A program made the translations under genes and the position numbers. 64,000 nucleotides of DNA from an uncultured Acidobacteriota bacterium (GTDB lineage Bacteria; Acidobacteriota; Thermoanaerobaculia; Multivoradales; UBA5704), in assembly GCA_963755825.1 (NCBI GenBank), contig CAVWLA010000003.1, positions 1,472,940 to 1,536,939 of the forward strand. Direction: 5' to 3'. Positions 4,523 to 28,207 of the stretch are shown here, one piece after another; the first letter of the stretch is position 1; every line of letters starts with the position of its first letter. The notes beneath the pieces were generated by a model, which saw nothing but the letters and a program-made list of their open reading frames with translations, was not told the DNA's origin and ran no database searches.

Positions 4523-5149
4523 ATGGCAGAGACCACGAAGCAACCGTCCCCCTACGGCGTCCATCCCGGCGTCGAGAAGGTCGCCGCCTGGCTCGACACG
4601 CTCCCCGCGACGACCGGCCGCTCGCTCGACGACTGGCTGCAGGTGATCGAGCGCTCCGGCCCGGCGGGAGAGGACGAGCGCCGCGACTGGCTCAAGAAAG
4701 AGCACGGCTTCGGCACCAACCAGGCGAGCTACCTCGCCGAGCGCTCGTGCGGCAAGGGCGTCGAGGACGGCGACCCGCGGGCCTACCTGGCGGCGGCCGA
4801 GCGCTGGGTCGATGCCATGCTCGCCGGCCCGCGCGAGGCCCTGCGGCCGCTCTACGACGAGCTCCTCGCCCTCGGCCTCTCCTACGCCGGCGTGCGCGCC
4901 TGCCCCTGCCAGACCATCGTCCCCCTCTACCGTCGCCACGTCTTCGCCCAGATCAAGCCGGCGACCCGCACGCGCATCGACTTCGGCCTCGCCCTGGGCG
5001 ACACCCCGGCCGCGGGCCGCCTCCTCTCGACCGGCGGCTACGAGAAGAAAGACCGCATCACCCACCGCATCGCCGTCTCGCGGCACGAGGACATCGACAC
5101 TTTCTTAAAGGAGTGGCTGGCGGTCGCCTACGCGCGAGACGCGAGGTAG
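4523..5149 (+). CDS. DUF4287/DUF5655 domain-containing protein (208 aa)
   Basis: ATG at 4523 follows a caggaga SD. The WLKKEHGFGTNQASYLAE segment matches my recollection of DUF4287, and the C-terminal half looks DUF5655-like. High GC3. Confidence 0.55.
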   Translation: MAETTKQPSPYGVHPGVEKVAAWLDTLPATTGRSLDDWLQVIERSGPAGEDERRDWLKKEHGFGTNQASYLAERSCGKGVEDGDPRAYLAAAERWVDAMLAGPREALRPLYDELLALGLSYAGVRACPCQTIVPLYRRHVFAQIKPATRTRIDFGLALGDTPAAGRLLSTGGYEKKDRITHRIAVSRHEDIDTFLKEWLAVAYARDAR

Positions 5150-5212
5150 GCGGCGCGAGGCGCTCGGGCTCGCCGCGCTTCCAGGCGGGGCGAGCGAGCC
5201 CGCCAAATCCCT

Positions 5213-7468
5213 GTGCTAACTTCCCCGCCCATGCCGGCCCTCCGGCGGTTCGCAGCCGCCGTCGCACTCTCCCTCCTCGCCTGCTCGTCGGCGAGTGGGC
5301 CGCCGCGCGCGCGGGTGTGGGACCTCGTCGCCCTCCTGCCGCTCGCCGAGACGGAGAGCGAGGTGGCGACGATCGACGTCGGCTCGCCGGCGGCGCGCGA
5401 GCACCTGGCGAGCGGCTGGTACAGCAACCAGAAGGGGACCGACGGCTCGACCTCGGTGTGGAGCCGCGGCGAGATCTCGGTTCTCGAGTTCTTCCTCGCC
5501 GCGCCGCGCGATCTGCGGGTGGAGATCCGCTGCGCGCCGCTCTCGCCGAGCGCGCCCGAGGCCGGCGGCGCCGGCGACGGCGGGCCGCAGGTCGTGCGCA
5601 CCGCGGTCAACGGCCGCTGGCGCAAGGACCTGATCCTCGCGCCCGGCATGCACGCCTACGCGGTCGACCTGCCGCGGGCCGACCTCCACGCCGGCATCAA
5701 CCGCCTGATCTTCAGCTATCGCTACGTCTCCGAGCCGCGGCGCGAGAACGGCCACCGCCGCCTCGCCGTCGAGTGGGACGCGCTGCGCTTTCTGCCCGCC
5801 GGCGCCGCCGGCGCCGAGCCGGCGGGCGAGCCGGGCGCCCTCTTCCTCCCCTTCGGCAGCGAGGTCTCCTACTTCCTCGATCTGCCGGGCGCCGCCGAGC
5901 TGGCGCTCGACCGCATCGAGACCCGCGGCGCCGCCGCCGGACGGCTGGACGTCGCGGCCGAGGTCGAGGGCGGGCCGCCGATGGCGCGCACGCTCGCCGC
6001 CGGCTCGTCGGCGCACGCGCTCGAGCTGCCGGGGCGCCGGGCGCACCTCCTCCACCTCGTCCTCCGCGCCGTCGGCTCGCCGGCGGACGCCGCCGGCGGC
6101 CTGCTGCTCGCGGCGCCGACCGTCCGCGCGACGGCGTCGCCGGCGCGCCTGGCGCGGCCGGCGGCGCGCGACGGCAACGCCGCCGCTCCGCAGCTCGCGG
6201 CGCCGAGGCCCGGCGCGCCGCCGCCGAACATCGTCGTCTACCTGGTCGACACCCTGCGCGCCGACCGCCTCGGCTGCTACGGGTCGGCCAAGCCGACCTC
6301 TGCGGCCCTCGACGGCTTCGCCCGCGGCGCCGTCCTCTTCGAGCACGCCTTCGCGCAGTCGAGCTGGACGCGGCCGACGGTCACCACCCTGATGACCGGT
6401 CTCGGGCCGCTGGCGCACGGCGTCACCACGCTCGAGGACAAGCTGCCGGCGGCGGCGACGACGCTCGCCGAGCGGCTGCAGGCGGCGGGCTACCGCACGG
6501 CGGGCTTCAGCACCAACCCGCAGGTGAGCGTCGGCACCGGCCTGTCGCAGGGATTCGCCAACTTCACGCTCTTTCCCGGCGGCACGCGCTCCGCCGCCGT
6601 CAATCCGCCGGCGCTGCGCTGGCTGGACGCCGGCCGCGGTAGATCGCCCTTCTTTCTCTACATCCAGACCATCGACCCGCACGTCCCCTACGCGCCGGCT
6701 CCCGAGCTGGCCCGGCGCTTCGCGCCCGGCGTGCCGGTGGACACCGGCACCGCCCAGGGGGCGGACCGCGTCTTCCGGGCGCGCGGCGAGGAGCGCGAGC
6801 GCCTCGTCGGCCAGCTCTCCGCGCTCTACGATGCCGAGGTGGCGGGCAACGTCGAGAGCTTCGGCGAGCTCGTCGCGGCGCTCCGCGCGCGCCGCCTCTT
6901 CGACTCCACGCTCATCGTCTTCGTCGCCGATCACGGCGAGGAGTTCGACGAGCACGGCGCCCTCGGCCACGGCTTCAACCTCTACGGCGAGACGCTCCAC
7001 GTGCCGCTCGTCGTCAAGTGGCCGGGCGAGACGCGCGGCGCGCGCGTGCGGCGCCTGGTGCAGCAGATCGACCTGGTGCCGACGATCCTCCGCGCCGCCG
7101 GCATCGCGGTGCCGCCGGGCCTGCCGGGGAGCGACCTGCGGTCGCTCGCCGCGGCGAGCCCGGCGAGCGACCGGCCCGTCCTCTCCCATCTGAGCTACGG
7201 CGGCCGCGAGGGGGTCAGCCTGATCGACGGCGGCTGGAAGGTGATCGTGCCGCTCACCCCGATGTTCGGCGGCGGCGCCGAGCTCTATCGCCTCGACGAC
7301 GACGCCGCCGAGCGCGTCGACCGCAGCGAGCGCGACCCGGTGCGAGCCGGCTACCTGCGGGCGCGCGTTCGCCGCGAGCTCCTCCTCGCCCATCCGAAGC
7401 CGGCCGCCGAGCGGACGCCGATCGACGGCGAGACGCGGAAGGCGCTGGCGGCGCTCGGCTATCTTTGA
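5213..7468 (+). CDS. Alkaline-phosphatase-superfamily (sulfatase-like) lipoprotein
   Basis: Signal peptide with an LLACSS lipobox. Sulfatase-domain blocks: NIVVYLVDTLRADRLGCYG, SSWTRPTVTTLMTG, LIVFVADHGEEF, HVPLVVKWPG. C-terminus ends ...LAALGYL. The motif SSWTR replaces the canonical C/S-x-P-x-R. Confidence 0.75.
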   Translation: MLTSPPMPALRRFAAAVALSLLACSSASGPPRARVWDLVALLPLAETESEVATIDVGSPAAREHLASGWYSNQKGTDGSTSVWSRGEISVLEFFLAAPRDLRVEIRCAPLSPSAPEAGGAGDGGPQVVRTAVNGRWRKDLILAPGMHAYAVDLPRADLHAGINRLIFSYRYVSEPRRENGHRRLAVEWDALRFLPAGAAGAEPAGEPGALFLPFGSEVSYFLDLPGAAELALDRIETRGAAAGRLDVAAEVEGGPPMARTLAAGSSAHALELPGRRAHLLHLVLRAVGSPADAAGGLLLAAPTVRATASPARLARPAARDGNAAAPQLAAPRPGAPPPNIVVYLVDTLRADRLGCYGSAKPTSAALDGFARGAVLFEHAFAQSSWTRPTVTTLMTGLGPLAHGVTTLEDKLPAAATTLAERLQAAGYRTAGFSTNPQVSVGTGLSQGFANFTLFPGGTRSAAVNPPALRWLDAGRGRSPFFLYIQTIDPHVPYAPAPELARRFAPGVPVDTGTAQGADRVFRARGEERERLVGQLSALYDAEVAGNVESFGELVAALRARRLFDSTLIVFVADHGEEFDEHGALGHGFNLYGETLHVPLVVKWPGETRGARVRRLVQQIDLVPTILRAAGIAVPPGLPGSDLRSLAAASPASDRPVLSHLSYGGREGVSLIDGGWKVIVPLTPMFGGGAELYRLDDDAAERVDRSERDPVRAGYLRARVRRELLLAHPKPAAERTPIDGETRKALAALGYL

Positions 7469-7589
7469 ACAGCGCCCGTCCTCGGCGCTGGCATGCGCGG
7501 CCGGCCGCGAACGCTGTTGATAGACTCGGCGCGATGCTCTTCCATGGCGGGTTTCATCTCCCCGGCGCCCTCCGCGGAGGGCGGCGGCG

Positions 7590-8996
7590 ATGAGCGATCG
7601 TGCCCTGCGCGTCGGCATGGTCGGCACCTTCGACGTCGACAACTATGGCGACCGCCTCTTCCCGCTGATCGCCCAGGCCGAGCTGGCGGAGCGGCTCGGC
7701 GCGGTCGACGTCCACTGCTTCTCGTACCAGGCCAAGACGGCGGCCGAGTGGCCCTTCCCGGTGACCTCGGTCACCGAGCTGCCGCGGCTCGTCCCGACCC
7801 TCGACGGCCTCCTCGTCGGCGGCGGCTTCCTCATCCGCTTCGACAAGCGGGTCGCCCCCGGCTACCTGCCGCCGAGCCCGGCGATCCATCACCCCACCGG
7901 CTACTGGCTGACGCCGGCGCTCCTCGCCCTGCAGCACGGCATCCCCCTGCTGTGGAACGCGCCCGGCGTCGACTACGGCCGCCTCCCCGCCTGGGCCGAT
8001 CCGCTGCTGGAGCTGGCGCTCGGCGAGAGCGCCTACATCGCCGTCCGCGACGAGCCGTCGCGCGATGAGCTCGCCCGCTTCGTCGCCGCCGACCGCATCG
8101 ACCTGGTGCCCGACACCGCCTTCGGCGTCGGCCGCCGGCTCGGCGGCGCGCCGAGCGCCGAGTTCGCCCGGCTGCGCGACGGCCTCGGGCTGACCGGGCG
8201 CTACATCATCATCCAGGGGACGCCCGGCCTCGAGGGCTGCCATCGCTTCCTCAAGCGGCACGCCGAGCTGTGGCGCGAGCATCGCCTGCTGGCGCTCGCC
8301 GTCGGCCCGGTCAACGGCGACGACGCCAACCTGCCGAATGCCGATCTCCCCGCGCTCGTGCGGCTGCCCGCCTCGCCCCATCCGTTCCTCCTCGCCGAGA
8401 TCATCCGGCGGTCGGCGGCGGTCATCGGCCCCAGCTACCACCTGGCGATCACCGCGCTCACCGCGGGCGTGCCGGTCTTCACCCACGCGGACCTGAGCCT
8501 GGGGAAGTTCCCCGGCCTGGCCGGCCTCGCGGGCCTCTTCCCGATGCCGGACGAGGGCGACGACCCGGCCGGCTTCATGGCGCGGCTGGGGCAGAGCGCG
8601 GTCTCGCCGCAGGTCGGCACCGCGCTCGGCCAGCTGGCGCACCACTGGGACCGCGTCGCGGCCGTCCTCGGTGCCGGCGCGAGCGGCGCTCGCGGCGGTC
8701 GATCCGATACGGCGCGGGAGGCGGTCGGCCGTTTCTGGCAGTCGCTGCCGGGCATCCTGGAGGCGGCCTCCCTGCAGGCCGACGCGCTCGCTCGCGGCGA
8801 GGCGGAGCGGCAGATCGCGGCGGCCGAGGCGGCGGCGGCGAGCGGCCGCGAGCGCGTCGCCGAGCTCGGCCGGGTGCTGACCCTGGCGCGGAGCGAGATC
8901 GCTCGGCGCGACCGCCGCATCACCCAGCTCCTGCAGTCGACCTCCTGGAAGCTCAGCGCGCCGCTGCGCTTCGTCGGCCGGCGCCTGGGCCGCTAG
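7590..8996 (+). CDS. Polysaccharide pyruvyl transferase family protein with a C-terminal coiled-coil extension
   Basis: N-terminus MVGTFDVDNYGDRLF and overall pattern typical of PF04230 (CsaB/WcaK-like). ggaggg SD upstream of the ATG. Confidence 0.7.
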   Translation: MSDRALRVGMVGTFDVDNYGDRLFPLIAQAELAERLGAVDVHCFSYQAKTAAEWPFPVTSVTELPRLVPTLDGLLVGGGFLIRFDKRVAPGYLPPSPAIHHPTGYWLTPALLALQHGIPLLWNAPGVDYGRLPAWADPLLELALGESAYIAVRDEPSRDELARFVAADRIDLVPDTAFGVGRRLGGAPSAEFARLRDGLGLTGRYIIIQGTPGLEGCHRFLKRHAELWREHRLLALAVGPVNGDDANLPNADLPALVRLPASPHPFLLAEIIRRSAAVIGPSYHLAITALTAGVPVFTHADLSLGKFPGLAGLAGLFPMPDEGDDPAGFMARLGQSAVSPQVGTALGQLAHHWDRVAAVLGAGASGARGGRSDTAREAVGRFWQSLPGILEAASLQADALARGEAERQIAAAEAAAASGRERVAELGRVLTLARSEIARRDRRITQLLQSTSWKLSAPLRFVGRRLGR

Positions 8997-17793: not shown

Positions 17794-18116
17794 CAGCCAG
17801 GAATAGGTACCTGGCACCTTTCTGGCAGCTCGTACCTCGCCAGTGAGCGGTCTCTCTCGCTAGCAGACAGCCAGGAGTGGGTACCTGGCACCTTCCTTTC
17901 CCTCGGGCTCGACCGCCGGCCCGCCGAGAGATCGTTGTTGCCGATGCCGCGATGAACCCTCGTCACGCAGAGCGAGAGTGTATTGCCTCCTATTTGCCAT
18001 AAGCCTCTCCACTCAATACCCAGTGATAAGTACCTGGCACCTTTTGATCCGCGTTTAGCCGTCGGTTGGTCGGACCATTTCGCCAGCTGGAGGACAGACA
18101 TAGGTACCTGGCACCT
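17794..18116 (+). repeat. Four direct copies of a 16-18-nt repeat, (A)TAGGTACCTGGCACCT(T), at ~17803, ~17877, ~18026 and ~18099, arranged as two pairs with 73-74-bp spacing. Copies 1 and 2 share a longer 27-nt repeat, CAGCCAGGA(A/G)T(A/G)GGTACCTGGCACCTT
   Basis: Read directly from the sequence. The core AGGTACCT is an 8-bp palindrome. The surrounding ~390 bp are clearly GC-poorer than the rest of the window and non-coding. Confidence 0.8.
17812..17827 (+). promoter_or_regulatory. Sigma-54-like -24/-12 element, TGGCACctttcTGGCA, inside repeat copy 1
   Basis: Matches TGGCAC-N5-TTGCW with GG and GC exactly 10 nt apart and one mismatch (TGGCA instead of TTGCA). The other three copies lack the -12 GC. 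Confidence 0.35.
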
Positions 18117-18134
18117 CGTGTTAGCCTCGCGGGC

Positions 18135-18842
18135 GTGATCGTAGTCGACCTCGGCGCCGAGCTCCTCTTCGTCACCCAGCCCGACCACGCGCACCTGAGT
18201 GGCGACATTCTGGGGCTCTGGCGGGCCGACGGCCTACCCGACAATCCGCGGCGGGCCGAGGTCCTCTTCGCCGGCCGCGAGCACGACAACGGCTGGCGCG
18301 AGGCCGACGCGGCGCCGCGCTGGGACGCCGCCGCCGGCCATCCGCACACCTTCGTCTCGATGCCCACCGCCGAGCGCATCGCCATCTGGGAGCGCGCCAC
18401 CGCCCGCTTCGCCGCCAGCCACCCCTACGCCACGCTGCTCATCGCGCAGCACGCCCGCGCTCTCCACCGCGACCGCGTTGGTGACGAGGCCTGGGGCGAT
18501 TTCCATGATTACCTCGACGAGCTCGAGCGCGGCCTTCTCGAGGCGACCGGCGCCGCTCCCGAGGACGTCGCCGCCGACTACCGCTTCCTCGACCTCGCCG
18601 ACCTCATCTCGCTCTCGGCCCTGAACCGCGCCCCCGAGCGCTTCGCCCGCCACGGCTCGAGCGGCCGCCGGGAGGGCGACGCCGTCCACCTCGACCCCTT
18701 CCCCCTCGCCGGCTCGACCGCCTTCTCCGTCCCCTGTCGCCGCATCCCCAACCGCCCCTATGCCGGCGACGCCGACCTCGGCGGCGAGCTCGCGGCGGCG
18801 CGCTGGCAGAGCGTCCGCGTGCGCCTCGCCCCCGAGCCCTGA
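18135..18842 (+). CDS. Hypothetical protein (~235 aa; start uncertain, GTG at 18135 within ORF 18066..18842)
   Basis: High GC3 from about 18135 onward (IVVDLGAELLFVTQPDHAHLSGD...); no family confidently recognised. Confidence 0.5.
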   Translation: MIVVDLGAELLFVTQPDHAHLSGDILGLWRADGLPDNPRRAEVLFAGREHDNGWREADAAPRWDAAAGHPHTFVSMPTAERIAIWERATARFAASHPYATLLIAQHARALHRDRVGDEAWGDFHDYLDELERGLLEATGAAPEDVAADYRFLDLADLISLSALNRAPERFARHGSSGRREGDAVHLDPFPLAGSTAFSVPCRRIPNRPYAGDADLGGELAAARWQSVRVRLAPEP

Positions 18843-18911: not shown

Positions 18912-19244
18912 ATGATCGGCAGGACCTGGCATGGCTGGACGACGTTCGAGAACGCGGACGCCTACGAGGCTCTGCTCCGCACCGAGATTCTCCCCGGCAT
19001 CCATCGGGTGGCCGGCTTCCGCGGCGCCTACCTCTTGCGCCGCGAGGACGGCGATGAGATGGAGTTCGTCACCCTCACCCTCTTCGATTCGCTGCAGGCG
19101 ATCGAGGAGTTCGCCGGCGAGGACTGCGAGGCGGCGGTGGTGCCGCCGGCGGCACGGCATCTGCTGTCGCGCTTCGATTCGCGCGCCATCCACTTCGAGG
19201 TGCGGCTGACCGCCACCGACCTGGCGCGCCCGGCGGCTTTCTAG
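18912..19244 (+). CDS. Antibiotic-biosynthesis-monooxygenase (ABM/Dabb)-like small protein
   Basis: gaggagg SD; ~110 aa with an ABM-like ferredoxin-fold pattern (EFVTLTLFDSLQAIEEF). Confidence 0.55.
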   Translation: MIGRTWHGWTTFENADAYEALLRTEILPGIHRVAGFRGAYLLRREDGDEMEFVTLTLFDSLQAIEEFAGEDCEAAVVPPAARHLLSRFDSRAIHFEVRLTATDLARPAAF

Positions 19245-19732
19245 GAGGCGCCCTCGGGCCGCGGCGAGAACGGCGGCTTGGCAACCTCCGCCGCCCGCCC
19301 GTCCTCACCGGCGAAGACGACCTGCTCGAAGACGCGCCGGTAGAGGAGCAGGAGGTCGGCGAAGACACGGGAGAAGGCCTGGTCGGTCGACTCCGAGAGC
19401 AGCGGGTGGATCTTGAACAGCGGGGGCAGCGGCGACGGCTCGCCCGCGGCGCCCTCCATCCGGGGCGCACCGCTGGGCAGCGCGTCGGTGCGGGCAAGCT
19501 CCGCGGCGCGTTCGTCGACCAGGTAGAGGGTGTAGAAGAACTCGAAGTGGCCCACGCCGAGGGCGTTCAGGACCTTCTCCAGCGAGTCGAGCTTGGGCAG
19601 CTCCTTGCCGTTCTCGTATTTCGACAGCTGGCTCTTGCCGATCCCCGCCTCGCGCGCCACCCGCGCCTGGCTCTTACCCCGCAGCTCGCGCAGCAGGCCG
19701 AGCGTCCTGCCCAGATTGGCGAACATGTCCAC
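19241..19732 (-). CDS. XRE-family HTH transcriptional regulator
   Basis: N-terminal HTH_XRE (LRELRGKSQARVAREAGIGKSQLSKYENGKELPKLDSLEKVLNAL). Its stop overlaps the ABM gene stop in a convergent CTAG; divergent from ogt. Confidence 0.75.
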   Translation of the reverse strand: MDMFANLGRTLGLLRELRGKSQARVAREAGIGKSQLSKYENGKELPKLDSLEKVLNALGVGHFEFFYTLYLVDERAAELARTDALPSGAPRMEGAAGEPSPLPPLFKIHPLLSESTDQAFSRVFADLLLLYRRVFEQVVFAGEDGRAAEVAKPPFSPRPEGAS

Positions 19733-20027
19733 AAGCGAAATGTACCGGGTGGCGCGGACTCAGGCAAGCTGTAAGTCTTTCTCTACATGATACTTACGCC
19801 GGACCAAGAAATACCCAGAAAGGGCTATTTCATGCTCTTTTATGGAAACGATCATCCATATCTGTTTCTGTATCGGCTTGAAGGTGCCGATCTCAATCAC
19901 GCATCGCGCCGCGATTGGTGTCTCCGCCGGCGAACCTCGCGGAGGTGACGTGCTGAGCGTTCCGGCGGGGCGCGACGGACAGGTTTCCCGGTCTCCTTCC
20001 GCGAGGCGTCGTGTTACCCTCAGGGGC

Positions 20028-20579
20028 ATGCCCGATGCCCAGGAAGACGGCGGCGCCGCCGCCCAGGAGGGCCAGGCCGAGCCGTTGCGCGTGCTTGTTC
20101 CCTCACCCCTGGGACCGCTCGGGATCGAGCTGACGGGGGCGGCGATCAGCCGCCTGCTGATCGATCCCGGCCGCGAGGCCAAGGCTGCCTTCACCCCCTT
20201 CCATAAGTTGAGGGGATCGGACCTGCTGGACGAGCTCTTCGGCCGCCTCTCCGAGTACTTCGCCGGCGCGCGGCGACGGCTGGAGATCGAGTTCGACCTC
20301 GCCGCGAGCGGCCTCGACGGCTTCGCCAAGCGCGTGCTCAAGGAGACGGCGAAGACCCCCTACGGCAAGACGCGGACCTACCGCAGCCTGGCCGACGCCG
20401 CCGGGCGTCCGGACTCCTACCGCCAGGTGCTCTCGATCCTGCTCGAGAACCCCATCCCGATCCTCATCCCCTGCCACCGCGTGGTGACCAGCCGGTCGGG
20501 GATCGGCAGCTACATCGGCGGCGGCGACCGCAAGAAGTGGCTCCTCGACCTCGAGGCCCAGGGTGGCGAGCCGCTCTGA
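20028..20579 (+). CDS. ogt: Methylated-DNA--protein-cysteine methyltransferase
   Basis: Active-site IPCHRVV motif and C-terminal DNA-binding domain. Internal ATG at 20028; the upstream ORF portion is AT-richer and non-coding. Confidence 0.85.
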   Translation: MPDAQEDGGAAAQEGQAEPLRVLVPSPLGPLGIELTGAAISRLLIDPGREAKAAFTPFHKLRGSDLLDELFGRLSEYFAGARRRLEIEFDLAASGLDGFAKRVLKETAKTPYGKTRTYRSLADAAGRPDSYRQVLSILLENPIPILIPCHRVVTSRSGIGSYIGGGDRKKWLLDLEAQGGEPL

Positions 20580-20652: not shown

Positions 20653-20676
20653 GTGCTCGCGAGCTGCCGCGCGCGG

Positions 20677-21867
20677 CTACTGCTGCTGCAGGTCGATCTG
20701 GAGGACGGTGTCCTCGCCGCCCTTGGCGGTGAAGTGCCGCTCCTCCGAGTGACGGCCAGGACGGACGATCGACAGCGTGTGATCGCCGGCGAGGACCATG
20801 AGGCCGCCGCCCTGCGCGACCTCCTCGGCGGTGCCGGCGAAGCGGCCGTCCAGGTAGACCGAGGCGTCGCCCGGCGTCACCTGCAGCCGCAGCATGCCCT
20901 GGTGGCGCGATCCGGCCACCGGCGGCGGCGGAGCGCCGCGGTCGTCGTCGCGATCCCCATCGGGCCGCCTCGGCGCCCGGTCGGCGCGATCGCGCCAATC
21001 GCCGTTTCCGCCGCGGTCGTCGCCGTCGCGCGAGTAGCGGTCGGCGCGATCCTGCATCTCACGATCCTGCTGCAGGCGCGCGTCGCGGCGGTCGTGCGTC
21101 TTGGTCTGCAGATCCTCGGGGCGGATCGACGGGCCGCGGTCGAGGCGGTCGGTCCAGTCCACCACCAGGCCGCGGTAGATGGTCACCTGGCGGGCGAGGG
21201 TCTTGTAGCCCTCGCGGTAGAAGACCAGGTCGTAGGTGCCGGGATCGAGCCACAGGTACTGCGGCCAGCCGTCGAAGTCGTCGACGACGCCGATGTACTG
21301 CCCGTCGAGATAGACCTGGGTGTCGGCCGGCGACAGGTCGAGGTCGAGGGCGCCCTGGTCGTCGCGGCGGGCGCGGTCGCCGCCGTAGGCGTAGGGAGGC
21401 GCGTCCCAGCCGTCCCACCCGTAGTAGCCGTAGTACGGCCAGTAGTCATAGGGGAAGCCCCAGAAGAACGGCGTCCCCCAGGTGAACGCGAAGCTGCCGT
21501 AGAAGCGCGGGAAGTAGCCGAAGTGGCCAGGGCCGAAGCCGAAGCCGAAACGGCCGAAGTTGCCGCGCCGGAAACCGTTGCCATGGAAGCCGCCGACGTT
21601 GCCGTGGAAGCCGCCGTGGAAACCGGTGCTGCCATGGAAGCCGCCGGTGCCGTGTGAGCCGCTGCCATGGCCGGAGGTCGAGATGTGCGACGAGTGCATG
21701 CCGCCGCCCGAGTGGCCGCCGCCGCTGTGGCCGCCGCCGTGGGACGCGGCGAATGCCGGGACGCTCGCCATCAGCAGGGCGGCGCCCAGCATGGCCGGGA
21801 CGGAGAGCCGCCCCGCGCGATGGTCGCGGAACCGGATGGTCCGCGCTTGCTCCAAGAACCGAATCAT
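20677..21867 (-). CDS. Secreted Gly/His-rich, aromatic-rich protein with two PEGA domains (396 aa)
   Basis: ATG at 21867 overlaps the stop of the upstream GT2 gene (ATGA). Signal peptide (...LLMASVPAFAAS); HGGGHSGGGHSGGG and GFHGxxGFHG repeats; an FGYFPRFYGSFAFTWGTPFFWGFPYDYWPYYGYYGW block; an RDDR low-complexity linker; two PEGA-like segments (VYLDGQYIGVVDD..., VYLDGRFAGTAEE...). The first 258 codons of the ORF are artefact. Confidence 0.7.
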   Translation of the reverse strand: MIRFLEQARTIRFRDHRAGRLSVPAMLGAALLMASVPAFAASHGGGHSGGGHSGGGMHSSHISTSGHGSGSHGTGGFHGSTGFHGGFHGNVGGFHGNGFRRGNFGRFGFGFGPGHFGYFPRFYGSFAFTWGTPFFWGFPYDYWPYYGYYGWDGWDAPPYAYGGDRARRDDQGALDLDLSPADTQVYLDGQYIGVVDDFDGWPQYLWLDPGTYDLVFYREGYKTLARQVTIYRGLVVDWTDRLDRGPSIRPEDLQTKTHDRRDARLQQDREMQDRADRYSRDGDDRGGNGDWRDRADRAPRRPDGDRDDDRGAPPPPVAGSRHQGMLRLQVTPGDASVYLDGRFAGTAEEVAQGGGLMVLAGDHTLSIVRPGRHSEERHFTAKGGEDTVLQIDLQQQ

Positions 21868-22787
21868 GGCGTTTCTCCTTCGCCGTCGTGCCACGCTCTG
21901 TGAAGACCTCGGATGTAATGGTACCTGAGGGCTTCTTGCCACGCACGAGGCATCGTTACAGGAAGATTTTGCAAGCCGCGGACCAGGGCCTCGCGGACCC
22001 TCTGGCGCCGCCCCGAGGGCAGCGGCGGCGGACCGTCCGGCCCGACGCCGACGAACGATCCGAGCTCGGGATGGAGGCGGTAGAAGACGACTCCGCAGTA
22101 GCCGGCCTTCTCCTGGCGCACGGCGAAGCGCTGGAAATCGGTCGGATGGTCGTGGGCGACGACAGCCGCCGGCTCGTAGACCATGCGCAGGCCGCGCCGC
22201 TGCAGGCGGTAGGCGACCTCGATATCTTCCCATGCCGCATAGGGAAACGAGAGGTCGAAGGGCTCGGCGAGGAGGAGGTCGCGGGCGAGCGAGATGTTCG
22301 AGGTGTAGAAGAAGTTGAAGGGGACCTCCTCGCGGTCGCGGATGAGCGCGTAGCCGAACTGCAGGCCGTGCTCGTTGATGTAGCGCAGGAAGGGCGTCAG
22401 GCGCATCCGCGGGTGCCAGCCGGTGTAGCCCAAGACCGCCACGCGCGGGTCGTCGCCGCGCTCCGTATGGGCGGCGCGATGGGCCGCCAGCCATCCTCTC
22501 GCGGGGACGGTGTCGTCCCCCAGAAAGGCCACCCAGCGGCCGGCGGCGACGGCGACCCCGGTGTTCCTCGCCGCCGCCGGTCCGGCGTTCTCCTGGGTGA
22601 GCGAGCGCAGGGCGAGCGACCCCGGGCGGGAGCGCAGCCATTCGGTCGTCCCGTCGTGCGACCCGTCGTCGACCACCACCACCTCGAAGCTCGGCGCCCC
22701 CTCCTGCGCCTCGAGCGCGGCGAGCACCTCGCGGAGCACCTCGAGCCGGTTGTGGGTGGGGATGACGACCGAGACCTCGGGACCCAT
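21864..22787 (-). CDS. Glycosyltransferase family 2 protein
   Basis: VSVVIPTHNRLEVL...VVVDDGSHDGT, the GT-A fold DxD region and AWEDIE. Confidence 0.85.
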   Translation of the reverse strand: MGPEVSVVIPTHNRLEVLREVLAALEAQEGAPSFEVVVVDDGSHDGTTEWLRSRPGSLALRSLTQENAGPAAARNTGVAVAAGRWVAFLGDDTVPARGWLAAHRAAHTERGDDPRVAVLGYTGWHPRMRLTPFLRYINEHGLQFGYALIRDREEVPFNFFYTSNISLARDLLLAEPFDLSFPYAAWEDIEVAYRLQRRGLRMVYEPAAVVAHDHPTDFQRFAVRQEKAGYCGVVFYRLHPELGSFVGVGPDGPPPLPSGRRQRVREALVRGLQNLPVTMPRAWQEALRYHYIRGLHRAWHDGEGETP

Positions 22788-23207
22788 GCCTGAAGCTTAC
22801 CCCCGGAAGCTCACCCGAGGCGGCGGGTGCGGGGCCGAGCCGAGCCCGGCCCCGCGAGGGGCGGCAAGCCCGTGCGAGCGGTTGCGTGGACCGACCGCGC
22901 GGGAGGTGGGATGAGGGCCGGGGCTCGGGGTTCGCGGCGGGAACTGCCGCCGTCGAGCCGGGCGACCGGGTGGGACGTCCGCCCCGAATGGCCCTTCAAG
23001 AGACCAAGGTGCTCACTAATTAATAAAGGTGACAATCGTCTATGCGATTCCGGGTCCGCGGACTGCGGGTGCCGGAACACTTCCCCGCCCTCGCCGGTTC
23101 TCCCTGTCGGAGCCCGTGCCGCGGGTCCGCGGCGCCGGCCTCTCCAACCACACAATGTTCGACGGCGCGGCCGCGGCTGGCCGCAGCCGAGGCCAAGGAG
23201 GTCTCAG

Positions 23208-23681
23208 ATGACGGAGAAGGCGATGTTCGGGGCGGGTTGCTTCTGGGGGGTGGAGACGGCGTTCCGGCAGGTTCCGGGGGTGGTGGACGCCGCCGTCGGC
23301 TATTCGGGCGGGCAACTCGCCCAGCCCAGCTATCGGGACGTCTGCTCGGGGCGGACCGGCCACGCCGAGGTGGTCGAGGTCGAGTTCGACCCCGCCAAGG
23401 TCTCCTTCGACCAGCTCCTCGACGTGTTCTGGGCCAACCACGATCCCACCACCAGGAACCGCCAGGGGCCGGACGTCGGCGAGCAGTACCGCTCGGCGAT
23501 CTTCTACACCACCCCCGAGCAGAAGGCCGCCGCCGAGGCGAGCCGGGCGCGCGAGGAGGCGAGCGGCCGCCACCGCCGGCCGATCGTCACCGAGATCACC
23601 CCCGCCGCCGAGTTCTGGCGCGCCGAGGAGTACCACCAGCGCTACCTCGAGAAGCGCGGCCAGGCGCACTGCCGCATCTGA
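23208..23681 (+). CDS. msrA: Peptide-methionine (S)-S-oxide reductase
   Basis: GAGCFWGVE active-site motif, ggagg SD, 157 aa. Confidence 0.9.
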
Positions 23682-23705: not shown

Positions 23706-24947
23706 TCAGCTCCCCGCCTCCATCTCCCGCGCCAGCTCGCCGAGGATCGCCATCGCCTCGCCGAGCTGGTCGTCGGCGAGGTAGGGCGCCGGACCCAGGC
23801 GGAGCACGTCGCCGCGGTGGTCGGTCGCGACGCCGCGCTCGGCGAGGCCGCGGCAGAGGTCGGCGGCGCGGGGGGAGGCGAGGGCGAGGAAGCCACCGGT
23901 GCCGCTCAGCGGCAGGTCGCGGTCGCGGGCGATCAGCCGCGACGGCAGGTCGAGGGCGTCGAAGAGCTCGGCGAGGAGGCCCACCTGGTGCTGGCTCACC
24001 TCGCGGAGGAGGTCGACGCCGAGGCCGTGTTCGGCGAAGAAGTCGAGGACCGCGGCCGCCCGGTAGTGGCTCGTCGGGTCGTAGGTGGCGCCCGCCCAGC
24101 GGGCGGCGCCGCGCGGGTAGCCGACACCGCCGCCCGGCGGCGCCGCGAGGTGGTCGAACTCGGCGTACCAGCCGGTGACGACGGGGCGCAGATCGGCGCC
24201 CGCCGGCACCCGCAGGAAGCAGTTCCCCTCCCCCATCTGGCAGTACTTGTATCCGCCGCCGACGACGTAGGCGCCGGCGAGGCCGAGCCTGGCGAGCGGC
24301 AACGGCACGACGTTCGCCGCGTGGTAGGCGTCGACCAAGAGCGCCGCGCCGGCGCGCTCGGCGGCCGCCATCGCGCGGTCGAGCCCGGGGACGATGGCGC
24401 CGCTGCCGAAGAGCACGGCGGAGACGAGGACCGCCGCCGTCCGCCCGTCGACGGCGCCGGCCAGCCGCTCGGCGATCGCCGCCGCCGGCCGCGCCGGCAC
24501 GCGGACCACCTCGATCCCCTCCTCGGCGAGGCGGTCGAGCTGGCGGCGGAGGGTGTGGAACTCGCCGTCGGTCGTCACCAGACGCGGCCGCTGGCGGAGC
24601 GGCAGGGCGGAGAGGAAGCGGACGACCAGCTCGTGGGTGCTGCCGCCCAAGGCGTAGTCGCCGCCCGCCTCGTCGTCGAGGAGCCGCGCGAAGCCGCGCC
24701 GCACACGCTCGGCGACGGCGAAGGCGCGCTCCCACTTGGCGTCGACGGCGTCGGCGGCATCGTCCCAGGCGAGGAGCTGGCCGTCGCGGGCGCGGTCCGG
24801 CCACGCCTGGTGCGAGTGCCCGGTCAGCAGCAGGCGCGAGCCGACGCGGAAGCGCGCGTAGTGCGGCGCCAGGGCGTTGGGAGTGCAGTAGAGATCGCCG
24901 GGGGCGATCGGAGCCAGGGGAGCGACGGGAGCGGCAGGCGCCGGCAT
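23706..24947 (-). CDS. kynU: Kynureninase
   Basis: PLP-dependent aminotransferase class V fold with a GGGYKYCQMGEG block; positioned directly downstream of kynA. Confidence 0.8.
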   Translation of the reverse strand: MPAPAAPVAPLAPIAPGDLYCTPNALAPHYARFRVGSRLLLTGHSHQAWPDRARDGQLLAWDDAADAVDAKWERAFAVAERVRRGFARLLDDEAGGDYALGGSTHELVVRFLSALPLRQRPRLVTTDGEFHTLRRQLDRLAEEGIEVVRVPARPAAAIAERLAGAVDGRTAAVLVSAVLFGSGAIVPGLDRAMAAAERAGAALLVDAYHAANVVPLPLARLGLAGAYVVGGGYKYCQMGEGNCFLRVPAGADLRPVVTGWYAEFDHLAAPPGGGVGYPRGAARWAGATYDPTSHYRAAAVLDFFAEHGLGVDLLREVSQHQVGLLAELFDALDLPSRLIARDRDLPLSGTGGFLALASPRAADLCRGLAERGVATDHRGDVLRLGPAPYLADDQLGEAMAILGELAREMEAGS

Positions 24948-24975: not shown

Positions 24976-25752
24976 CTAGAGGTGCGGGCGGATCGCCCAG
25001 AGGTCCGGGAAGAGCGGCTGGAAGAGGGTGCGCTTCAGGTAGTCGGCGCCCGCCGAGCCGCCGGTGCCGCGGCGGGTGCCGATCGTCCGCTCGACCATCT
25101 TGACGTGGCGGTAGCGCCACTCCTGGAGGCCCTCGTCGAGGTCGACCATGCGCTCGCAGATCTCGCGCGTCGCCGGGTCGCGATGGTAGACGTCGACGAG
25201 CAGGCGCTGCACCTCCTCGTTCTCCTGCGGCGGCTGGGAGATGTCGCGGTGGAGCGCCGCCTCCGGTACCGCGTAGCCCTGGGTGACGAGATAGCGCAGG
25301 AACGAGTCGTAGAGGCTGGGGCGCGCCAGCAGCGCGGCGAGGCCGGCGCGCTGCGCCTCGTCGTAGTGCTGCCCGATCGTCGGGCTGCGGTGGCCGAGGA
25401 GGATCTCGACCTCGCGGAACTGGATCGACTGGAAGCCGCTCGCGGTGTCCAGCCGGTCGCGGAAGGAGAGGAAGGAGACCGGCGTCATCGTCTCCAGGAT
25501 GTCGACCTGGCCGACCAGCGTCTTGAAGATGGTGAGCGTCCGCTTGAAGGCTGCCTGCGCCGTCGGCGCGTCGCCCGCCGTCAGCGAACGCTGGATCATC
25601 TCCACCTCGTGGCGCACCAGCTTGAACCACAGCTCGTAGACCTGGTGGATGACGATGAAGAGCAGCTCGTCGTGCTCCGGCCCTGCCGACTGCGCGACCT
25701 GCAGCGAGAGCAGCTCGTCGAGCTTCAGATAGCTGTTGTAGGTGACGGTCAA
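24976..25752 (-). CDS. kynA: Tryptophan 2,3-dioxygenase
   Basis: LTYNSYLKLDELLSLQ, FIVIHQVYELWFK and the heme-binding region. Start placed at the TTG at 25752, 7 nt downstream of an aaggag SD; upstream in-frame codons have poor GC3. Confidence 0.8.
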   Translation of the reverse strand: MTVTYNSYLKLDELLSLQVAQSAGPEHDELLFIVIHQVYELWFKLVRHEVEMIQRSLTAGDAPTAQAAFKRTLTIFKTLVGQVDILETMTPVSFLSFRDRLDTASGFQSIQFREVEILLGHRSPTIGQHYDEAQRAGLAALLARPSLYDSFLRYLVTQGYAVPEAALHRDISQPPQENEEVQRLLVDVYHRDPATREICERMVDLDEGLQEWRYRHVKMVERTIGTRRGTGGSAGADYLKRTLFQPLFPDLWAIRPHL

Positions 25753-25858
25753 GGCGCCGCTCCTTTGGCCGCCAAGGTTACGGGAGGGGCGGAGCGCGGT
25801 CAAACGACGACGGCGCGCCCCGGCCGGCGGCTGGCGCGGGAGGTTATATCCTCGCTGC

Positions 25859-28207
<2,349 letters not shown>

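Follow-up and report, generated by a model that had tools for sequence, protein, structure and literature searches.

In this work we focused on two adjacent genes in a stretch of 64,000 nucleotides (referred to below as the window) from the genome of an uncultured Acidobacteriota bacterium of the class Thermoanaerobaculia (contig CAVWLA010000003.1). The first encodes a family 2 glycosyltransferase (GT2) and the second, lying immediately downstream and overlapping it, a protein with two PEGA domains. This class is abundant in soils, sediments and bioreactors, hardly any of its members has been cultured, and to our knowledge nothing is known about its envelope proteins. An earlier note, made from the DNA sequence, had described the second product as a secreted Gly/His-repeat protein and proposed that it is a self-assembling, metal-binding surface or matrix protein. 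We show that the two genes form a real operon which is kept together throughout the clade, and that the conserved low-complexity element of the PEGA protein is its aromatic/Gly-rich segment. A search of a literature library for this PEGA family, its coupling to a GT2 enzyme, its link with an aromatic/Gly-rich segment, or PEGA proteins of Thermoanaerobaculia returned nothing.

The gene pair and its flanking signals

The positions of the genes, protein segments and signals are listed in Table 1. The start codon of the PEGA gene overlaps the stop codon of the GT2 gene (ATGA), as the earlier note had read it, and is preceded by a ribosome-binding site. Its assignment of a rho-independent terminator also holds, since a G-C-rich stem followed by a T-run is found 25 nucleotides (nt) past the stop codon of the PEGA gene.

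Table 1. Coordinates of the GT2-PEGA gene pair, its protein segments, flanking signals and neighbouring genes in the window
Feature	Position	Strand	Description
GT2 glycosyltransferase gene	21864-22787	minus	Open reading frame (ORF) encoding 307 amino acids (aa); Pfam Glycos_transf_2 match
Double-PEGA protein gene	20677-21867	minus	ORF, 396 aa plus stop; predicted exported
Start/stop overlap ATGA	21864-21867	minus	PEGA-gene ATG (21867-21865) over GT2 TGA (21866-21864); read from sequence
Ribosome-binding site AAGGAG	21880-21875	minus	7 nt 5' of PEGA-gene ATG, within 3' end of GT2 gene
Intrinsic-terminator-like hairpin	20651-20620	minus	Stem of 9 bp, 8 of them G-C; loop of 4; then TTTCTTTTGT
Intergenic region between divergent GT2 and msrA genes	22788-23208		421 bp; holds AT-rich island and GC-rich hairpin
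Signal-peptide-like N-terminus, residues 1-40	21748-21867	minus	Long basic n-region, h-region VPAMLGAALLMASVPAFAA, then AFA/AS
Gly/His/Ser-rich disordered head, residues 41-115	21523-21747	minus	HSGGG and GFHG repeats; pLDDT <50
Aromatic/Gly-rich segment, residues 116-165	21373-21522	minus	Predicted disordered; 'sticker' region kept family-wide
PEGA domain 1, residues 172-240	21148-21354	minus	Pfam stretch 179-239; AlphaFold2 beta-sandwich, pLDDT ~95
Conserved charged helix, residues 255-281	21025-21105	minus	T-K-T-H-D/E-R-R-D-x-R ... R-E; AlphaFold2 pLDDT ~75
Arg/Asp-rich disordered linker, residues 282-322	20902-21024	minus	DWRDR motif conserved; pLDDT ~50
PEGA domain 2, residues 323-392	20692-20901	minus	Second Pfam PEGA stretch; AlphaFold2 beta-sandwich, pLDDT ~96
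O6-methylguanine-DNA methyltransferase (MGMT) gene	19842-20579	plus	PF01035, 86.7 bits; convergent
Tryptophan 2,3-dioxygenase gene	24976-25950	minus	PF03301, 197.8 bits; directly upstream of kynureninase-like ORF
Kynureninase-like ORF	23706-24947	minus	413 aa; KYNU_C, 26.6 bits, just below cutoff of 27
DUF3891 protein gene	18066-18842	plus	128 bits
Small ABM-family monooxygenase-like protein gene	18912-19244	plus	24.5 bits
XRE-type HTH_3 regulator gene	19241-19732	minus	

The promoter of the operon presumably lies in the intergenic region that separates the GT2 gene from the divergent msrA gene. A sigma-70 promoter scan gave a consensus match nowhere, this intergenic region included. An isolated AT-rich island, CTCACTAATTAATAAAGGTG, is located at 23012-23031 in a region of 72% GC and may mark the promoters. 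Closer to the GT2 gene, approximately 40-70 nt upstream of its start, a GC-rich inverted repeat (GCGGGGCCG...CGGCCCCGC, 22829-22855) is found, with a T-run on neither strand. It belongs to a 93-nt block that is 87% identical to the corresponding block of the closest relative (locus L005). The Rfam models gave no match in the whole window at gathering thresholds and none between 20400 and 23400 at E<=1.

Homologues of the PEGA protein are abundant: a word-indexed search retrieved 563 of them at E<=1e-3, and the C-terminal core alone (residues 165-396) gave, among representatives of clusters at 50% identity, 2680 with E<=1e-3, of which 185 had E<=1e-30. The gene is therefore real, far beyond chance. 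In public records the members of the family are labelled 'PEGA domain-containing protein' or 'hypothetical protein'. Long ORFs also run antisense to the pair, among them 20653-21657 (plus strand, 334 aa) and 21654-22793 (plus strand, 379 aa) and many others. We rejected them as genes and regard them as shadows of the high GC content (72.6% in the host genome). Antisense ORFs over the GT2 and PEGA genes cluster across loci too (ORF clusters 2 and 3), because the sense genes are conserved.

Conservation of the pairing

Two scans were carried out. In the first, with one genome taken per species, relatives of the PEGA protein were found in 154 genomes, and the best 80 of the 154 loci were analyzed; all 80 come from Thermoanaerobaculia, Acidobacteriota or 'Holophagales' metagenome-assembled genomes (MAGs). 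In the second, metagenomes were searched using an alignment of the GT2 enzyme as the query, and the best 80 of at least 502 loci were retained. A GT2 orthologue lies directly upstream of the PEGA gene and on the same strand in 72 of the 80 genome loci. Of the remaining eight, six break off with no sequence upstream of the PEGA gene, so that the pair is found in 72 of 74 testable loci. Conversely, of the 64 metagenome loci in which the sequence continues for at least 900 bp past the GT2 gene, 62 carry a PEGA gene downstream of it on the same strand. The pairing is near-obligate in both directions, so that the earlier question of whether the GT2 is always coupled can be answered with 'nearly', and the functional link drawn between the two products is strongly reinforced.

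The spacing of the two genes is conserved as well. Taking as start codon at each related locus the candidate nearest to the GT2 stop, the PEGA gene begins at the GT2 stop or a few codons away in most of the 72 loci: 36 of them have a 4-nt overlap (ATGA, GTGA or TTGA), and most others overlap by 14-38 nt or leave a gap of at most 28 nt. A site resembling AAGGAG or AGGAG precedes the PEGA start by 6-8 nt in most of them.

True exceptions were found at two genome loci, L036 and L049, and at two metagenome loci, L145 and L160. In L036 (~6400-8700) a GHMP-kinase-like gene takes the upstream place, and the PEGA-family gene has a short aromatic N-region. In L145 (3992-7467) the GT2 orthologue (61% identity) is flanked by a 443-aa ORF and the start of a 901-aa ORF, with no PEGA gene; judged from their translations, the former appears to be glycosyltransferase-like, and in the latter a domain of glycosyltransferase type seems to be present. 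P0388, the closest named relative of the L145 enzyme (66%), has a PEGA gene coupled to it by a 4-nt overlap. In L160 (345-2410) the GT2 gene is followed by a gene for a multi-pass membrane protein, whose translation resembles an HTTM-type protein.

Start codon and export signal of the PEGA protein

The annotated start codon with its signal-like N-terminus, as proposed earlier, agrees with the ribosome-binding site, the conserved overlap and the conservation of residues 1-25, and these speak against a later Met as the start of the gene. Residues 1-40 are 74% identical to those of the L005 orthologue, and the closest relatives keep the N-terminus MIRLSEQAR... A Kyte-Doolittle (KD) scan found a sole hydrophobic stretch in the protein, residues 23-41 (mean KD 1.82), and a hydrophobic 12-mer near the N-terminus is present in 211 of 228 full-length family members. 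By a heuristic for Sec signals cleaved by signal peptidase I, the N-terminus combines a basic n-region, a hydrophobic h-region and small residues at -3 and -1, a pattern that recurs in homologues. From these features we infer that the PEGA protein is exported by Sec and cleaved by signal peptidase I. The protein contains no Cys at all (family median 0), hence no lipobox, which rules out a lipoprotein. A consistent twin-Arg motif (S/T-R-R-x-F-L-K) is not present, which rules out a Tat substrate.

Cleavage at the predicted site, after AFA, would leave Ala-Ser-His as the mature N-terminus (residues 41-43; 21739-21747, minus strand). Several relatives would start with ASH or AGH, and many others differ (RSS, QER, etc.). 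A free N-terminus of the type X-X-His is known as the ATCUN motif, which binds Cu(II) and Ni(II).

The surface or S-layer location suggested earlier found no support in the protein itself. Among surface-anchor modules, no SLH domain, PEP-CTERM signal, beta-barrel or sorting domain was found: Pfam gives only PEGA and CarboxypepD_reg, AlphaFold2 (AF2) predicts no further folded domain, and the C-terminus reads ...LQIDLQQQ. In a diderm bacterium a Sec signal alone predicts a periplasmic location, unless a further export step exists.

Domain anatomy of the PEGA protein

The AF2 model of the PEGA protein was built on an alignment of 117 sequences. Residues 1-160 are predicted to be disordered, with predicted local distance difference test (pLDDT) values below 50. 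Behind the signal peptide lies a head with 12 His, 30 Gly and 13 Ser+Thr among its 75 residues (41-115), encoded by DNA in which short units recur in tandem, with periods of 12, 15, 18 and 21 nt. The aromatic block that follows was correctly singled out earlier: Phe, Trp and Tyr account for 52.5% of residues 116-155, and the block FTWGTPFFWGFPYDYWPYYGY hardly differs among the closest relatives and within the subclade of the window.

The two PEGA domains are likewise borne out, both by Pfam (PF08308, matched in two stretches with 39 bits, cutoff 20.8) and by the beta-sandwich fold of the models. PEGA-1 carries an insert, VDDFDGWPQYLWL, that is near-invariant in family alignments. PEGA-2 displays the canonical motif PxDASVYLDGRFxGT...G.H.L..VRPG, in which P332, D334, S336, Y338, D340, G341, F343, G345, H363, R369, P370 and G371 are invariant. 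Foldseek searches of the PDB with the model found just generic transthyretin-like and carboxypeptidase-regulatory sandwiches (E ~1e-3), rhamnogalacturonan lyase and sandwiches of the surface glycan-binding protein (SGBP) type among them, and the PDB sequences gave no meaningful match to the profile of the family. Between the domains lies the charged RD/DR region of the earlier description, with 16 Arg and 19 Asp+Glu in the 72 residues from 251 to 322. It comprises a helix, with H258, R260, R261, D262 and R264 conserved, and a linker (residues 282-322) with 9 Arg and 10 Asp of 41, in which W291 and R294 are conserved.

Whether the region rich in Gly, His and aromatic residues is conserved in homologues has two answers. 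Its aromatic part is: the 60 aa ahead of PEGA-1 have a median of 35% Phe/Trp/Tyr and 22% Gly, and at least 25% are aromatic in 213 of 228 full-length members. Its His/Gly part is not. In the spacer between the signal peptide and the aromatic segment, His reaches 8% in only 58 of 206 members (~28%; median 3.5%) and Gly reaches 30% in 51 of 206, and it is Ser+Thr that prevails, with a median of 25% and at least 25% in 108 of 206. Distant members have extreme spacers rich in Ser, Thr, Arg and Pro. In six short variants (273-294 aa) the spacer is practically missing, and the signal peptide runs straight into an aromatic segment of the WGPGWGWWGP type.

Selection points the same way. The ratio of nonsynonymous to synonymous substitution rates (dN/dS), a rough Nei-Gojobori (NG86) estimate in a genome of such high GC content, was calculated against the two closest orthologues. 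It amounts to 0.44-0.73 in the His/Gly head, as compared with 0.20-0.37 in the aromatic segment and ~0.2 in PEGA-1 together with the helix, so that purifying selection is weakest in the head among the segments compared. The aromatic/Gly segment is the conserved and constrained low-complexity element of the family, and the His/Gly repeat is a lineage-specific form of a fast-evolving spacer, not the family core.

These data bear directly on the idea that the protein is a Ni-, Cu- or Zn-binding, self-assembling surface, S-layer or matrix protein with the His/Gly repeat as its functional core. The density of His in the head of the window protein and its predicted X-X-His mature start, with the likeness to ATCUN mentioned above, speak for it, and PEGA was first described in surface-layer-like proteins (PMC2447325). 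The rarity of His-rich spacers, their absence from the short variants, the relaxed constraint on the head and the lack of an S-layer anchor, lipobox, barrel or sorting domain speak against it, and we consider it very unlikely. As the repeat is rare and the least constrained part, metal binding would be at most a lineage-specific add-on. Self-assembly is still plausible, but the element to credit with it is the universal aromatic/Gly segment, in place of the His/Gly repeat.

The GT2 glycosyltransferase

The identification of the upstream product as a GT2 enzyme stands, with Pfam scores of 84.6 bits (cutoff 23.3, E 9.5e-24) for PF00535 (Glycos_transf_2) and 60.8 bits (cutoff 27) for PF13641. Its AF2 model (pLDDT 90.9, predicted TM-score 0.88) has the Rossmann-like GT-A fold, continued by a conserved C-terminal helical extension (residues ~218-301). 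A transmembrane segment or signal is lacking (maximum KD over 19 residues 1.15), which speaks against a membrane-bound or processive GT2, and the enzyme is predicted to be soluble and cytoplasmic. D40/D41, G90-D91-D92, W186-E187-D188 and H212-D213-H214 are invariant or nearly so in 73 orthologues, including the partners of the short variants. In the alignment with the chondroitin polymerase K4CP, G90-D91-D92 falls on the D-C-D motif (here a variant 'GDD') and W186-E187-D188 on GGED, so that both the acidic nucleotide/metal-binding motif (DxD type) and the catalytic acidic motif are found. To judge by these residues, the active site is intact in all orthologues compared, and sugar transfer is predicted.

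Foldseek placed K4CP first (E 3e-14), with WrtF, TarS/TarP, AvpGT and ppGalNAc-T between E 1e-11 and 3e-14, all of them generic GT-A enzymes. A PglI-like enzyme and CgT/GalT1 of the Fap1 pathway are also among the sequence and structure neighbours. In NCBIfam, two models stand out by far and align across the whole GT-A domain, EpsD (NF041875, 176.2 bits, E 1e-51) and MftF (TIGR03965, 133.8 bits, E 8e-39); all others score at most 67 bits. Neither score comes near its equivalog cutoff (370 and 280 bits, respectively), and neither an exopolysaccharide (EPS) cluster nor an mft cluster surrounds the pair, so that the enzyme is assigned to neither family. EpsD-type enzymes of exopolysaccharide biosynthesis act on lipid-linked glycan intermediates. 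MftF links a glucan to mycofactocin at the hydroxyl group of its moiety derived from tyrosine (PMC7491314). The affinity to MftF, taken with the Tyr-rich partner, may serve as a lead only. Across the clade the GT2 enzymes are 61-88% identical and their PEGA partners 36-77%.

Neighbouring genes

Clustering of the ORFs over the loci left only three genes that are widely shared, those for GT2, PEGA and a convergently transcribed MGMT (39 loci). Other neighbours occur in at most 22 of 81 loci and are housekeeping genes, named by reading their sequences: lytic transglycosylase-like, HIT-family, MurA, PrmC, PrfA and PBP1-like. The GT2 and PEGA genes are a self-contained two-gene module. We also considered the pair as part of an EPS cluster, which is ruled out by neighbours that are unconserved and mostly housekeeping. 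In the window the pair is surrounded by msrA, the tryptophan 2,3-dioxygenase and kynureninase-like genes, MGMT and helix-turn-helix (HTH) genes, which is neither an EPS nor a mycofactocin context.

The recurrence of neighbours also allows a reading in which the two genes are merely co-transcribed in a stable chromosomal neighbourhood, with no direct biochemical link between their products. Such general stability of the region in the clade is what the synteny of MGMT and the recurrence of several housekeeping genes would suggest. The pair, however, is kept in ~97% of the testable loci, and no other neighbour exceeds 49%. The distance of the overlapping codons is maintained down to ~36% (PEGA) and 61% (GT2) identity, and also in loci with entirely different flanks. 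We therefore hold co-inheritance without a functional link to be unlikely.

Synteny of the MGMT gene was found in 39 of 80 loci; in most cases it is convergent, with 25-130 bp between it and the stop codon of the PEGA gene. In the window, the MGMT ORF is longer than its called homologues (245 aa vs 156-189 aa) and probably starts at a later codon. Downstream of it sit the DUF3891, ABM-like and HTH_3 genes; in 13-22 related loci, DUF3891 and HTH genes are again close to the pair, and L161 has DUF3891 together with a malic enzyme gene as well. In this latter locus (4633-5726, minus strand; an Acidobacteriota MAG) the genes for an extracytoplasmic function (ECF) sigma factor and a zf-HC2 anti-sigma factor are located immediately upstream of the GT2-PEGA pair in divergent orientation, which could hint at envelope-stress control; this arrangement is not found in the window. 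The tryptophan 2,3-dioxygenase and kynureninase-like genes look like a kynurenine-pathway pair. As they are neighbours of the pair in at most 7 of 80 related loci, their position next to an operon for a Trp/Tyr-rich protein is probably a coincidence.

Proposed mechanism

We tentatively propose that the GT2 enzyme modifies the PEGA pre-protein in the cytoplasm before its export by Sec, giving rise to a self-associating envelope glycoprotein. The two proteins would be translated together from the coupled genes, and the enzyme would glycosylate the nascent or unfolded pre-protein, which would then be exported via Sec and freed of its signal peptide. The mature glycoprotein might self-associate via its aromatic segment, possibly with Arg-aromatic (cation-pi) contacts to its own Arg/Asp linker, and the PEGA domains could dock it as an envelope or matrix scaffold. 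In the lineage of the window, the His/Gly repeats would bring pH or metal responsiveness. Export and cleavage, direct glycosylation, self-association and the final location of the protein are what we infer, and it is composition by itself that suggests self-association and docking.

The proposal starts from the tight coupling of one glycosyltransferase with one exported protein, for which an enzyme-substrate relation is the simplest explanation. Because the enzyme is predicted to be cytoplasmic and its partner exported, the two would meet only before export. An accessible substrate appears to be available, the 120 N-terminal residues of the mature protein being predicted to be disordered and the spacers of most members being rich in Ser+Thr. 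The reciprocal pairing in a module of two genes, the invariance of the catalytic-type residues in the orthologues and the constraint on the aromatic segment agree with this proposal as well.

Several points weigh against a glycosylated PEGA protein. No protein-glycosylating GT family was matched above cutoff by the GT2 enzyme, and an outer-membrane export or anchoring module was not recognizable in the PEGA protein with Pfam or AF2. Others lend themselves to a different explanation, namely that the enzyme acts on a lipid-linked or other non-protein acceptor and carries out one step in the synthesis of an envelope glycan or glycolipid, the remaining genes being located elsewhere, while the PEGA protein binds, organizes or anchors the product. 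The best curated match of the enzyme is EpsD, an exopolysaccharide-biosynthesis protein, and K4CP, WrtF, TarS/TarP and the PglI-like enzyme act on glycans or polymers. The enzyme is more conserved than its partner, a pattern more in keeping with a conserved acceptor (a small molecule or a lipid) than with a low-complexity peptide that evolves fast. The six spacer-less variants keep an intact, overlapping GT2 gene, and in L145 the divergent orthologue has other glycosyltransferases around it but no PEGA gene. Carbohydrate-binding proteins, moreover, commonly contain aromatic residues and transthyretin-like sandwiches, as the rhamnogalacturonan lyase and SGBP-type matches recall. On the other hand, the neighbourhood has no conserved priming transferase, flippase, polymerase or ligase, a link at the level of a pathway needs no translational coupling of a single glycosyltransferase to a single exported protein, and the aromatic segment is predicted to be disordered, unlike known carbohydrate-binding modules. 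This explanation is the main rival of our proposal and is possible, if doubtful, being only a little less likely than the latter.

For glycosylation of the PEGA protein, the short variants have a further consequence. Since they retain the enzyme, the spacer would not be the sole or obligatory target, and the aromatic segment (Tyr, Ser) or the folded core would be implied; the Ser/Gly/His spacer as an obligatory target is weakened accordingly as a candidate. A bolder version, which we regard as improbable, holds that the exported aromatic/Gly stickers and the spacer form an envelope condensate or hydrogel tuned by glycosylation before export, perhaps on Tyr. Tyr is suggested because of the MftF-like affinity of the enzyme and its retention in variants that have the aromatic segment only.

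The pair ranks among the most stable gene couplings in the clade, which, together with the high identity of the enzyme, suggests a core envelope function. Should the enzyme glycosylate its neighbour, the pair would represent a new, GT2-based class of dedicated protein glycosyltransferase and a simple enzyme-substrate pair. Should the aromatic/Gly segment self-associate, it would be a natural exported bacterial sticker domain, of relevance to envelope biology and engineered living materials. If neither holds, the unsupported metal-binding reading is still corrected.

Comparison with known systems

Aah-AIDA-I, TibC-TibA and HMW1C-HMW1 each consist of a dedicated cytoplasmic glycosyltransferase and an adjacent exported adhesin. 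The GT2-PEGA pair resembles them in that a single glycosyltransferase gene is co-transcribed with the gene for one exported protein of repeat or low-complexity type, and in the combination of a cytoplasmic enzyme with a Sec-exported partner, both predicted here, so that any modification must precede export. It differs in the enzymes, which in those systems are bacterial autotransporter heptosyltransferases (BAHT) or GT41 N-glycosyltransferases and here a GT2, and in the substrates, which there are autotransporters or two-partner-secretion proteins with outer-membrane modules, none being found here. By analogy, the pair may work like the Aah/AIDA-I pairs, of which it is not a member.

With the serine-rich-repeat glycoproteins Fap1 and GspB of Gram-positive bacteria, the family shares the Ser/Thr-rich disordered spacers of most of its members, and the neighbours of the GT2 include CgT/GalT1 (5hea), which is a GT-A enzyme from the Fap1 pathway, although the similarity is weak (E 9e-11). 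Unlike those systems, it has no accessory SecA2/Y2 system, LPXTG anchor or GtfA/B, and its hosts are diderm Acidobacteriota. As for PEGA proteins in general (PF08308), the family has two bona fide domains of this kind, PEGA itself being a generic module without an assigned activity; the near-invariant DDFDGWPQYLW insert of PEGA-1 is family-specific and sets it apart from other PEGA proteins.

Cohesive low-complexity domains rich in aromatic residues and Gly are known from eukaryotes, in FG-nucleoporins (whose Ser/Thr spacers are modified by O-GlcNAc), in the LARKS (kinked segments of low complexity that are rich in aromatic residues) of FUS-like proteins and in the His/Gly/Tyr proteins of the squid beak. 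The likeness is one of composition only, with GF-, FG-, YG- and WG-rich disordered stickers beside Ser/Thr- or His/Gly-rich spacers. It may extend to a dedicated cytosolic glycosyltransferase and to an Arg-rich region that could supply cation-pi partners. There is no homology, and the compartment differs, the bacterial protein being exported. A dedicated glycosyltransferase with an exported low-complexity partner is thus a known scheme, which is built here from different parts and with an unusual aromatic/Gly-rich disordered segment.

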